This document shows positions 24,981 to 27,812 of a DNA stretch of 64,000 nucleotides, piece after piece (positions within the stretch are counted from its first letter, which is position 1; each line of letters starts with the position of its first letter). The stretch comes from Prevotella sp. Lineage in GTDB: Bacteria; Bacteroidota; Bacteroidia; Bacteroidales; Bacteroidaceae. The stretch is from contig JAGBJJ010000031.1 of NCBI GenBank assembly GCA_017934525.1, positions 14,184-78,183 of the forward strand, given 5' to 3'. The position numbers and the translations under genes were made by a program. Below the pieces are notes generated by a model. The model was not told the origin of the DNA. It saw only the letters and a list, made by a program, of their open reading frames with translations, and searched no databases.

Positions 24981-25012
24981 TTTGGCCAAAACGGAAAAAC
25001 TTCGTACCTTTG
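24981..25012 (+). promoter_or_regulatory. Primary-sigma promoter of the mce operon (-33 TTTG, -7 TACCTTTG)
   Basis: TTTG 24981-24984, 20-nt spacer, TACCTTTG 25005-25012. Confidence 0.7.
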
Positions 25013-25044
25013 CGCAGTAATTTATGTTTTAAACTTTAAACAAT

Positions 25045-25449
25045 ATGAAAATTTCGCACATTGAGCATCTGGGCATTGCCGTCCAGAGCATCGAAGAATC
25101 ACTCCCTTACTTTGAAAATGTACTGGGACTGAAGTGTTACAACATTGAAGAAGTTGCAGACCAAAAAGTAAAGACCGCTTTTCTGAAGTGCGGCGAGGTG
25201 AAGCTCGAGCTTCTTGAGCCCACATCACCTGAGAGCACCATCCAGAAGTGGCTCGACAAAGGCAACAAGGGCGTTCACCATGTGGCTTTCTGCATTGAGG
25301 ACGGCGTGGCCAACGCATTGGCAGAAGTCAGCGAGAAGGGCGTGCGTCTTATCGACCAGGCTCCCCGCAAAGGCGCAGAGAATCTGAACATCGCTTTCCT
25401 GCACCCGAAATCGACCTGCGGCATCCTGACCGAACTTTGCGAGCACTAA
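25045..25449 (+). CDS. mce: Methylmalonyl-CoA epimerase
   Basis: VOC fold: IEHLGIAV, ELLEP, GVHHVAF and FLHPKSTCGILTELC. Confidence 0.93.
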   Translation: MKISHIEHLGIAVQSIEESLPYFENVLGLKCYNIEEVADQKVKTAFLKCGEVKLELLEPTSPESTIQKWLDKGNKGVHHVAFCIEDGVANALAEVSEKGVRLIDQAPRKGAENLNIAFLHPKSTCGILTELCEH

Positions 25450-25543
25450 TTGGCTCCAAAGCAACTTTGGACCATGTGCGCACAACATAGAATCAAGGCC
25501 TACAGAAACCTGTATTAAATGATAATCATAGACATAAAATAAT

Positions 25544-27109
25544 ATGACCAAGCAATTAGAGAAAATCAAGCAGCTCATCGAGAAGCGCGAACAGGCCCGT
25601 CTCGGTGGTGGTGAAAAAGCAATACAGAAACAGCACGAGCGCGGCAAATACACTGCTCGCGAGCGTATCGAGATGCTTCTCGACGAAGGTTCTTTCGAGG
25701 AGTATGACATGTTCAAGGAACACCGTTGCCACAACTTCGGCATGGAGAAGAAGCAGTTCCCTGGCGACGGCGTGGTGGCCGGTTCGGGTACCATCGACGG
25801 CCGTCTGGTATTCATCTTCGCTCAGGACTTCACCGTCCATGCCGGCTCGCTGTCAGAGACCATGAGCCAGAAGATCTGCAAGGTGATGGACATGGCCATG
25901 AAGATGGGCGCTCCCGTCATCGGCATCAACGACTCGGGTGGCGCACGTATCCAGGAAGGCATCAACGCACTGGCCGGCTACGCTGAAATCTTCGAGCGCA
26001 ACATTCTGGCTTCGGGTGTCATCCCTCAGATCAGCGGTATCTTCGGCCCCTGCGCCGGTGGTGCTGTCTACTCTCCCGCCCTCACCGACTTCACGCTCAT
26101 GATGGAGAACACTTCATACATGTTCCTCACCGGACCGAAGGTGGTGAAGACCGTCACGGGCGAAGATATCGACCAGGAGCATCTTGGCGGCGCATCGGTT
26201 CACGCCACGAAGAGCGGCGTAACCCATTTCACTGCAAAGACCGAGGAGGAAGGTCTCCAGATGCTTAAGACGCTGCTGAGCTACATTCCCTCTAACAACA
26301 TGGAAGTGGCTCCCCGCAAGAAGTGCGACGACCCCATCAACCGCATGGAAGACAGCCTGAACGCTATCATCCCCGAGAATCCCAACGAGGCTTACGACAT
26401 GTACAAGGTGATTGGTGCCGTGGTTGACGATGGCGAATTCTTTGAAGTTCAGCCCAAGTTTGCCAAAAACATCATCGTCGGTTTCGCACGCTTCAACGGT
26501 CAGAGTGTAGGTATCGTTGCAAACCAGCCTATGTGCTACGCCGGTGTGCTCGATGTGAATGCATCGCGCAAAGGCTCGCGCTTCGTTCGGTTCTGCGACG
26601 CTTTCAACATTCCTATCGTCTCTCTTGTCGACGTTCCCGGATTCCTGCCCGGCACCGGCCAGGAGTACAACGCCGTTATCCTGCACGGCGCACAGCTGCT
26701 TTACGCTTACGGTGAAGCTACCGTGCCCAAGATCACGGTCACGCTGCGCAAGTCGTACGGCGGTTCTCACATCGTGATGGGCTGCAAGCAGCTCCGCACC
26801 GACCTGAACTATGCATGGCCCTCCGCCGAGATTGCCGTGATGGGTGCTTCAGGTGCTGCCGCAGTGCTCTATGCCAAGGAAGCCAAGGCCAAGAAGGAAG
26901 CCGGCGAAGACGTGAAGGCCTTCATTGCAGAGAAGGAGGACGAGTACAACGAGCTCTTTGCCAACCCCTATCAGGCAGCCAAGTATGGCTACATCGACGA
27001 TGTCATCGAACCTCGCAACACTCGCTTCCGCATCTGCCGCGGTCTGGCTCAGCTTGCTACCAAGCGCGATGCACTGCCCGCTAAGAAGCATGGCAACATT
27101 CCGATGTAA
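25544..27109 (+). CDS. mmdA: Methylmalonyl-CoA carboxyltransferase subunit (decarboxylase alpha / PCC beta / 12S-like)
   Basis: [30 protein letters not shown] and KKHGNIPM. Confidence 0.88.
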
Positions 27110-27129
27110 CAATTAAAAAACAGAGACCT

Positions 27130-27279
27130 ATGAAGAACGAAGTATATGCTGCCATCGCTCTGGCGCTGCACGAGCATCTCGGCAATAACGTTCACGATGT
27201 GGAGCCTGGCTTCATTACCATCGTGGAACATCCCACTCAGTGGAATGGTTACGCCCTCACCATGACAGCTCATCCTTAA
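27130..27279 (+). CDS. 49-aa small protein resembling the soluble C-terminal part of OadG/MmdD (delta) subunits; not in the ORF track
   Basis: MKNEVYAAIALALHEHLGNNVHDVEPGFITIVEHPTQWNGYALTMTAHP*; fills the gap between mmdA and the biotin carrier. Confidence 0.75.
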   Translation: MKNEVYAAIALALHEHLGNNVHDVEPGFITIVEHPTQWNGYALTMTAHP

Positions 27280-27291
27280 ATCAAAACAGAA

Positions 27292-27723
27292 ATGAAAGAA
27301 TACAAATATACAATCAACGGAACGAAGTACGAGGTTGCCGTTGGCGACATCGAGGAGAACATCGTGACCGTCACCGTAAATGGTGAAGAGTATAAAGTAG
27401 AAATGGAAAAGGAGCCGGAGCCCGAGAAGAAGAAGCCCGTGCTGGGTAAGGCTGCTGCTCCTGCCACAGCCGACGATGCTCCTGCAGCCAACAAGGATGC
27501 AGTGAACAAGAACAACGCCGTGAAGGCTCCTCTGCCTGGTGTCATCACCGACATCAAGGTGGCTGTAGGCGACGAAGTTCAGGCCGGCGACACAGTCATC
27601 GTGCTCGAAGCCATGAAGATGGCCAATGCCCTGCAGGCAGAAAAGGCCGGCAAGGTGACTGCCATCTGCGTGAAAATCGGTGAGAGTGTCATGGAAGACG
27701 ACGCCCTTGTGGTTATCGAATAA
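27292..27723 (+). CDS. Biotin carboxyl carrier protein (MmdC/1.3S-like)
   Basis: EAMKM biotinylation motif, A/P-rich linker and APLPG. Confidence 0.92.
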   Translation: MKEYKYTINGTKYEVAVGDIEENIVTVTVNGEEYKVEMEKEPEPEKKKPVLGKAAAPATADDAPAANKDAVNKNNAVKAPLPGVITDIKVAVGDEVQAGDTVIVLEAMKMANALQAEKAGKVTAICVKIGESVMEDDALVVIE

Positions 27724-27741
27724 TCAGTTTTCTTACGCTAC

Positions 27742-27785
27742 AAAAGAATCGCCACCGCCCTTTTGGGACGGTGGCGATTCTTTTT
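27742..27785 (+). terminator. Intrinsic (bidirectional) terminator ending the mce operon
   Basis: AAAAGAATCGCCACCG/CGGTGGCGATTCTTTT plus T tract. Confidence 0.85.
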
Positions 27786-27812
27786 GTAATATTCAAAACC
27801 CTGAACGGCTGA

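Follow-up and report, generated by a model that had tools for sequence, protein, structure and literature searches.

We analysed a 64,000-nucleotide (nt) stretch of Prevotella sp. DNA (contig JAGBJJ010000031.1; the whole stretch is hereafter the window) that contains an operon for a methylmalonyl-CoA carboxyltransferase system and, within it, an open reading frame (ORF) of 49 amino acids (aa) whose product appears to be a free copy of the docking tail of delta, the membrane-anchored subunit of Na+-pumping decarboxylases. The operon is single and compact, lies on the + strand (25005-27788), and consists of a promoter box, mce, mmdA, the 49-aa ORF, the biotin carrier gene BCCP1 and a terminator. 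The first gene, mce (25045..25449, +), encodes a methylmalonyl-CoA epimerase of 134 aa (TIGR03081, 139 bits, exceeding the cut-off of 115), and is followed by mmdA (25544..27109, +), which encodes a 12S/PccB-type acyl-CoA carboxyltransferase of 521 aa (PF01039, 662 bits) that scores 788 bits against the mmdA model TIGR01117, under its cut-off of 999. The PDB relatives of MmdA include propionyl-CoA carboxylase beta (676 bits) and transcarboxylase 12S (1ON3, 570 bits), and there is no structure of a methylmalonyl-CoA decarboxylase complex among them; mmdA is also the sole Carboxyl_trans gene detected in the window's genome. The 49-aa ORF (27130..27279, +), which we annotate from synteny, substitution rates and tail homology as a paralogue, without the anchor, of the C-terminal docking tail of delta (OadG/MmdD), begins 20 nt past the stop codon of mmdA, and 12 nt separate its end from the start of BCCP1 (27292..27723, +). 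The carrier itself (143 aa; PF00364, 61 bits) is built of an N-terminal anchoring segment, an Ala/Pro linker and a biotinyl domain with the EAMKM motif, its MKM standing at residue 108.

Both ends of the transcription unit are well marked. A Bacteroidetes-type -7 box (TACCTTTG, 25005..25012, +) lies 33 nt 5' of the mce start codon and is the sole + strand copy of the TANNTTTG consensus between 21096 and 30461; the consensus has 41 matches in the window where 18 are expected, and its copies lie mostly just 5' of ORF starts, which helps to delimit transcription units there. At the other end stands an intrinsic terminator, a hairpin with a T-run (27739..27788, +; -35.7 kcal/mol, z -9.8), which none of 200 shuffles equals in folding. 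The initial annotation of this DNA, made from its letters, had described just such a four-ORF operon closed by a strong terminator, and both descriptions are borne out. The flanks of the operon appear unrelated to it, with a TonB-dependent receptor on the 5' side and a DUF6057 membrane protein, encoded on the opposite strand, on the 3' side.

The 49-aa ORF is a real gene under purifying selection, a status we assign because its position, start, stop and length are conserved and its ratio of nonsynonymous to synonymous substitution rates (dN/dS) is low. A translated search of 24 congeners recovers it in 21, at 48-84% identity and with the reading frame unbroken throughout, and in all 12 congener loci that were fetched it has mmdA on one side and the carrier gene on the other, with ATG and stop conserved, a length of 49-57 aa, and a terminal proline preceding the stop in 11 of the 12. 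The median dN/dS is 0.17 (Nei-Gojobori NG86, 27 pairs with usable dS), a value to be read with the caveat that synonymous sites are often saturated, and variable columns divide 29/21/48 over the three codon positions. Conservation and dN/dS were the checks that the initial annotation had proposed for the ORF, and it passes both. Eighteen columns of the peptide are invariant (A7, A8, I9, A10, A12, E15, G18, N19, N20, H22, D23, E25, I29, T30, I31, W38, T46 and P49), giving the pattern AAIA.A..E..GNN.HD.E...ITI......W.......T..P, and the motif originally quoted for the peptide agrees with them. The peptide had also been called unannotated, which is accurate for the window's ORF track, from which it is missing, but not for public databases, where proteins of 49-52 aa named 'hypothetical protein [Prevotella sp.]' make up about 200 clusters. 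We further surveyed 60 congener genomes, each at least 90% complete and the same draw for every feature, and found the free peptide in 58 of them, none of the 58 with an internal stop. The AlphaFold model of the peptide has a confident N-terminal helix (residues 3-18), a remainder of low confidence and a predicted template modelling score (pTM) of 0.32; a poorly defined remainder is as would be expected for a segment that folds on its partner.

These data bear directly on whether the ORF might be a decaying, non-functional remnant of a truncated delta gene. It does resemble a delta gene minus the 5' part, and the locus tags of P. ruminicola 23 skip it (PRU_1231 and PRU_1232 are adjacent); a remnant, however, would not be expected to show a dN/dS of about 0.17, to keep start, stop and length down to 48% identity, to hold 18 columns invariant, or to be free of stops in all 58 congeners that carry it. 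The conservation and selection data effectively refute decay as an explanation, and we give it next to no credence.

The identity of the peptide emerges from comparison with the rest of the genome to which the window belongs (G000; 2.6 Mb, 101 contigs, 76.5% complete). This genome encodes an anchored delta of 327 aa on another contig, and the peptide aligns with the C-terminal part of that protein at 45% identity over 44 residues (E 2e-7); profile A1 matches the same delta at 3e-11, and a tail motif common to delta and free peptide is seen in alignment A2. In the 49-aa sequence there is neither a hydrophobic segment nor an N-terminal transmembrane anchor, in keeping with the initial description of the peptide as anchor-less, and for anchor-less relatives from other genera the highest Kyte-Doolittle mean over 19 residues stays below 1.4, where a classical delta has 3.4. 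Among characterised systems, the N-terminal helix of OadG/GcdD binds the beta pump and the C-terminal region binds the carboxyltransferase side near the carrier N-terminus (PMC7145394); the OadG tail binds a peptide of about 30 residues of OadA, and in the Gcd model the GcdD tail and the GcdC N-terminus make up the linker to GcdA (PMC7145394). Because the peptide is homologous to the tail of delta, and because the C-terminal region of delta binds the carboxyltransferase side, the peptide is, on grounds of homology, a docking tail minus its anchor, a paralogue of the C-terminal tail of OadG-type deltas. It thus shares with the delta/gamma anchors of Na+ decarboxylases (OadG, MmdD, GcdD; PF04277) its homology to the Bacteroidales delta C-terminal tail, but differs from them in having no transmembrane helix, no Ala/Pro linker and no match to PF04277 (OAD_gamma) at E <= 1, in having no pump gene nearby, and in being kept in genomes that lack the pump.

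Across the family the tail motif is C-terminal in three forms of protein: long deltas of 300-400 aa with a lamin-tail domain (LTD), classical deltas of 121-161 aa that consist of an anchor, an Ala/Pro linker and the tail, and free proteins without a hydrophobic segment. A profile of 30 tails matches 1310 representative clusters among 1.84 billion proteins, and among the 150 matches listed all but one have the domain C-terminally or close to that end. A tree built from 30 tail domains over 53 columns does not separate a single origin of the free peptides from several. Searching the ESM Atlas with the peptide gave, beyond the peptide's own clusters of 'hypothetical protein', only a language-model lead to PccX, and a weak one (0.76). 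In three short relatives (P0142, P0187 and P0226) the AAIA.AL helix is duplicated in tandem before a single HD.E..ITI..W tail. Two further genera have a free tail protein of 87-89 aa (L029:6747-7010, -; L033:2083-2352, -; L036:6749-7018, +), and its N-terminal segment is similar to that of the biotin carrier (39% over 31 aa, E 1e-5; MRTYKY.. in the segment and MKEYKYTING.. in the carrier), so that the protein amounts to a fusion, without biotin, of a carrier N-terminus and a delta tail. Since the two are fused in these genera, this suggests that tail and carrier N-terminus would act at one site, in agreement with the Gcd model (PMC7145394).

One parallel is the epsilon subunit of Veillonella. 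The methylmalonyl-CoA decarboxylase operon of Veillonella parvula has the order mmdADECB, and its epsilon (MmdE) resembles the C-terminus of delta and stabilises the complex. Like MmdE (NF047904), which is represented in NCBIfam by a model of 57 positions, the peptide falls in the range of about 50-57 residues and is encoded just before a biotin-carrier gene, its own gene standing directly 5' of the carrier gene of the mmd cluster. It does not match the MmdE model, either at E <= 1 with hmmscan or at E <= 10 in a whole-genome search, and it occurs without a pump; we have therefore not assigned it to that family, and the likeness is one of role and position only.

The contig that encodes the anchored delta also answers part of the question of the pump. 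The 327-aa delta (contig C99, L008:4889-5872; PF04277, 44 bits, exceeding the cut-off of 27) adjoins the pump gene and comprises a signal peptide, a lamin-tail-like domain, a transmembrane segment, OAD_gamma and a C-terminal tail. Its lamin-tail-like domain, on the outer side of the membrane, scores 30.5 bits against PF00932, slightly under the cut-off; many members of the family have such long deltas, of about 300-400 aa. On the same contig lie BCCP2, a second biotin carrier of 156 aa in which MKM is present, and an OadB/MmdB pump of 383 aa (PF03977, 498 bits; TIGR01109, 480 bits, exceeding the cut-off of 191), and the two methylmalonyl-CoA mutase subunits are both encoded in the genome. The methylmalonyl-CoA decarboxylase genes are thus spread over two contigs, not gathered in one operon as in Veillonella and Propionigenium. 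Because genes for pump, delta and mutase are all present, Na+-pumping methylmalonyl-CoA decarboxylation that uses the window's MmdA is to be expected in this organism, much as PMC11575231 suggests for X. ruminicola.

This changes the standing of what the initial annotation had made of the operon. Its statement that there is no beta subunit is correct within the operon but wrong for the genome as a whole, in which OadB/MmdB lies on another contig. From the absence of a beta gene it had derived two possible soluble complexes, of which the first, a soluble, energy-uncoupled methylmalonyl-CoA decarboxylase, finds no support and must be judged very improbable: MmdB is the sole decarboxylating subunit present, MmdB and delta are both encoded elsewhere in this genome, and congeners without a pump are also without the mutase and, in the four that were checked, without the epimerase, and hence have no route to methylmalonyl-CoA. 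The second, a Wood-Werkman-type transcarboxylase, fares better in that the core is kept without a pump and a 5S-like gene is present (both described below), while the pump, delta and mutase of this genome imply a Na+-pumping decarboxylase here. The genome search that had been suggested as a check located OadB/MmdB, the anchored delta and a 5S-like candidate, and no biotin carboxylase (PF02785) was found in this 76.5% complete genome.

The arrangement in the window is one of three that we find across the family. In Type A the order is mce-mmdA-delta-carrier-mmdB and the free peptide is absent; in Type B, found in four genera, a single operon has the order mce-mmdA-delta-free peptide-carrier-mmdB; and in Type C, that of the window's genus, mce-mmdA-peptide-BCCP1 is split from delta-BCCP2-mmdB. 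Among the loci examined, delta is anchored wherever mmdB is adjacent (9 loci, of which four add the free peptide in the order A-delta-peptide-carrier-B), and loci without a neighbouring mmdB all have a free tail. One genome of another genus (G187; L034 and L035) has both mce-mmdA1-peptide-BCCP1 and mmdA2-delta-BCCP2-mmdB. Because this genus has two loci that each contain mmdA, the split layout probably arose by duplication of the operon followed by reciprocal loss, and G187 resembles an intermediate stage.

The Type B order in four Bacteroidaceae genera is like the mmdADECB order of Veillonella, and it favours an alternative to our reading, in which the peptide would be no more than an accessory subunit, of the epsilon type, in a membrane-bound Na+-pumping methylmalonyl-CoA decarboxylase. 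The two loci would then be one operon split in two, and their products (MmdA, delta, peptide, two carriers and MmdB) a single complex in which the peptide caps the delta-free sites of MmdA and stabilises the assembly. Consistent with such a subunit, four genera place the free peptide between the delta and carrier genes of a single operon, every pump component and the mutase are encoded in the window's genome, NCBIfam recognises an MmdE subunit with its 57-position model, and the published description of the layout treats the two loci as one decarboxylase (PMC11575231). The failure to match the MmdE model even at E <= 10 counts against it, as does, more directly, the distribution of the peptide in genomes that have no pump.

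In the survey of 60 congeners the MmdB pump is present in 35. An anchored delta tail is found in 33 of these and in none of the 25 pump-less genomes, all of which have the free peptide (E 1e-24 to 1e-30); methylmalonyl-CoA mutase occurs in 26 of the 60, every one of them pump-bearing. Twenty-five congeners therefore keep mmdA-peptide-BCCP1 without pump, anchored delta or mutase. In the four near-complete pump-less congeners that we examined more closely the locus is reduced to mmdA-peptide-BCCP1, with mce missing and no epimerase over the cut-off genome-wide. In these four the carrier retains EAMKM and the peptide keeps nearly all congener-invariant residues, with a dN/dS of about 0.05-0.16 where dS is measurable. 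Two further genera, g33 and g38, have the pump in none of 9 genomes each, with the free tail beside mmdA and the carrier, and no biotin carboxylase in the 9 genomes of either. MmdA, free tail and BCCP1 are the invariant unit of the system in this genus, whereas the pump module (delta, BCCP2 and MmdB) goes with the succinate-to-propionate pathway, as judged by the mutase and, in the genomes checked for it, by the epimerase. To judge from the purifying selection on mmdA, peptide and BCCP1 in pump-less genomes, the core clearly also has a job that does not depend on the pump. Since 25 of the 60 congeners, together with g33 and g38, keep peptide, mmdA and carrier under purifying selection while pump and anchored delta are absent, a role confined to the pump cannot explain the conservation of the peptide, and we consider the epsilon-type account unlikely as a whole.

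It is worth noting that the pump and the mutase part company in some congeners. Eight genomes (G010, G020, G244, G248, G251, G258, G268 and G273) keep delta and the MmdB pump with the mutase absent, and in these the pump may be an oxaloacetate (or malonyl-CoA) decarboxylase that uses the 5S-like enzyme described below; a ninth genome (G241) has instead a classical OadA adjoining an OadB of 424 aa.

The pump-less genomes also speak to whether the peptide might be a regulator, a soluble decoy of the delta tail that, by competing for its docking site on MmdA, would set the balance between pump-attached and free carboxyltransferase. The docking motif common to peptide and delta would suit such a part, as would their coexistence in pump-bearing species and the lineage-specific residues that free and anchored tails share in the two single-operon genera that were read (L026: HDWE, SPW..K..TLRH). 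In pump-less species, however, there is no competitor and yet the peptide is equally conserved, and its co-transcription with mmdA suggests a constitutive structural role, not a regulatory one; we regard a decoy function as quite improbable. The peptide is most likely, on the pattern of its homology and occurrence, a small structural subunit, the soluble-state equivalent of the delta tail.

What the core does in the absence of a pump may be indicated by a third contig of the window's genome, which encodes a putative 5S-like pyruvate/oxaloacetate carboxyltransferase of 593 aa (contig C81, L009:478-2259, +). The initial annotation had anticipated a pyruvate carboxyltransferase encoded elsewhere, and this gene is a candidate. 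Its best solved relative is the 5S subunit of the Propionibacterium transcarboxylase (1RQB, E 1.5e-40), and the metal and catalytic motifs RD, KDMAG and HGHS (HxHS) are retained in this copy; in its degenerate, lipoyl-like C-terminal domain the lysine of the biotin position is not conserved (VEKWGE here, IENTHGQ in g33). The enzyme is present in 58 of the 60 congeners (593-620 aa), including all of the pump-less ones, and in the five g33/g38 genomes tested (5/5), and it is the only other carboxybiotin-handling enzyme found in pump-less genomes. Because the core is kept without a pump and a biotin-less 5S-like enzyme is encoded elsewhere, a transcarboxylase-like, pump-independent role of the core appears well motivated.

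A second line of evidence concerns the supply of malonyl-CoA, whose source in these bacteria is unexplained by conventional annotation. Biotin carboxylase (PF02785) is present in only four of the 60 congeners, each time beside a second carboxyltransferase, and in 66 of 200 genomes of the family, while 55 of the 60 congeners have exactly one Carboxyl_trans gene, mmdA. FabD was over its cut-off in all five genomes tested, four of them pump-less and the fifth the window's own. Anaerobic protists such as Giardia and Entamoeba have a fused enzyme for carboxyl transfer from oxaloacetate to acetyl-CoA. For genomes that carry FabD and lack both biotin carboxylase and a second carboxyltransferase, the same transfer is an obvious candidate origin of malonyl-CoA. 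We also considered whether, at the level of the family, loss of biotin carboxylase is tied to the free peptide, and rejected this, g42 being without both and g40 with both; the malonyl-CoA argument therefore concerns MmdA generally and not the peptide. A broader proposal would be that most species of the genus, and a good part of the family, being without biotin carboxylase, make malonyl-CoA by an ATP-independent transcarboxylase of MmdA, BCCP1, free peptide and 5S-like enzyme with the carboxyl group of oxaloacetate, the Na+ pump being an optional add-on to the same core in propionate formers and the peptide a soluble replacement for the delta anchor; we advance this tentatively, as plausible but somewhat short of probable.

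For the window's genome itself the reading that we favour, with moderate confidence, is that the peptide is a free copy of the delta tail in a soluble core with MmdA and BCCP1, and that this core would serve two outlets, the pump and transcarboxylation. MmdA (12S-type), BCCP1 and peptide would assemble into a soluble core module, in which we infer that the peptide takes the place of the delta tail where MmdA and the carrier N-terminus meet. Through the first outlet, the core together with delta, BCCP2 and MmdB would decarboxylate methylmalonyl-CoA, with pumping of Na+, as part of the succinate-to-propionate pathway, for which mutase and epimerase are present. Through the second, the core together with the biotin-less 5S-like enzyme would catalyse an ATP-independent transcarboxylation, oxaloacetate and acyl-CoA giving pyruvate and carboxy-acyl-CoA; this would be the sole outlet open to pump-less congeners and, among the genes searched, the only candidate source of malonyl-CoA in FabD-bearing genomes without biotin carboxylase. 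In pump-bearing species of Types B and C the peptide may in addition fill sites that are free of anchored deltas. Both the binding partners of the peptide and the two activities of the core are matters that we infer from genes and homology.

Several observations weigh against the two-outlet reading. The window's genome has pump, delta and mutase, so that a purely pump-associated role is possible there, and it is just 76.5% complete. The 5S-like enzyme falls under every NCBIfam cut-off (179 bits, against 827 for the 5S model), and it is so nearly universal that its distribution does not discriminate between hypotheses. Biotin carboxylase is found in 0 of 9 genomes in g42, which has the classical delta and pump, and in 6 of 9 in g40, which has the split layout. 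The genomes surveyed are related to each other, and the congener counts are therefore not counts of independent events. The AlphaFold model of the peptide is, as described, poor past the first helix (pTM 0.32), and the sole paper that mentions the peptide, PMC11575231, holds no data on it in its text or supplement.

That paper (mSystems 2024) has already reported the same two-locus layout in Xylanibacter ruminicola KHP1 and 23, and the architecture of its system is that of the window's: locus 1 comprises MCEE, mmdA, 'a short 50 aa hypothetical protein' and mmdC, and locus 2 oadG, mmdC and mmdB (PMC11575231). MmdD had been listed as missing (PMC10542786), and the oadG beside mmdC and mmdB was proposed as this 'missing' mmdD (PMC11575231). 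The 50-aa protein is given no interpretation there and has no expression entry in the supplement; the view taken is purely that of a Na+ pump, and neither the persistence of the core in pump-less genomes nor the absence of biotin carboxylase is reported (PMC11575231). A literature search for a transcarboxylase or an alternative malonyl-CoA route in Prevotella or the Bacteroidales found nothing relevant, although this search was limited and is no proof of novelty. The layout is thus already published, while three things appear to be new within the literature searched: what the peptide is, that the core is independent of the pump, and that biotin carboxylase is missing.

Two other known systems invite comparison. 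The transcarboxylase of Propionibacterium freudenreichii (12S, 5S, 1.3S; EC 2.1.3.1) resembles the set of parts found here in its 12S-type carboxyltransferase and its small carrier with an N-terminal anchoring segment; the 5S-like protein without a biotinyl lysine is a candidate for the remaining part, and biotin carboxylase was not found in the window's genome (76.5% complete) and in only four of the 60 congeners. Here, however, the genes lie scattered, a free docking peptide is added to the set, and the 5S-like protein is divergent, with a degenerate, lysine-less lipoyl-like domain at its C-terminus. The actinobacterial epsilon subunits AccE/PccE and the haloarchaeal PccX (PF26062) are likewise short soluble peptides beside a PccB-type carboxyltransferase and are thought to aid assembly, but the peptide has no hidden Markov model match to them, and a biotin carboxylase is part of how those enzymes work.

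In the rumen and the human gut, Prevotella-type bacteria dominate the production of propionate and succinate, and recent papers still describe the final steps by which they form propionate as incomplete (PMC10542786, PMC11575231). Seen as a free docking tail of delta, a 50-aa 'hypothetical protein' gains a role that can be tested. Many species have no pump, no mutase and no biotin carboxylase and keep mmdA, peptide and carrier as their sole acyl-CoA carboxyltransferase system, which makes these more than 'propionate genes'. If the system is indeed a route to malonyl-CoA, it would be essential and energetically unusual, a carboxylation without ATP cost, with consequences for metabolic models of gut communities and for the use of metagenomic 'mmdA' abundance as a marker of propionate formation.

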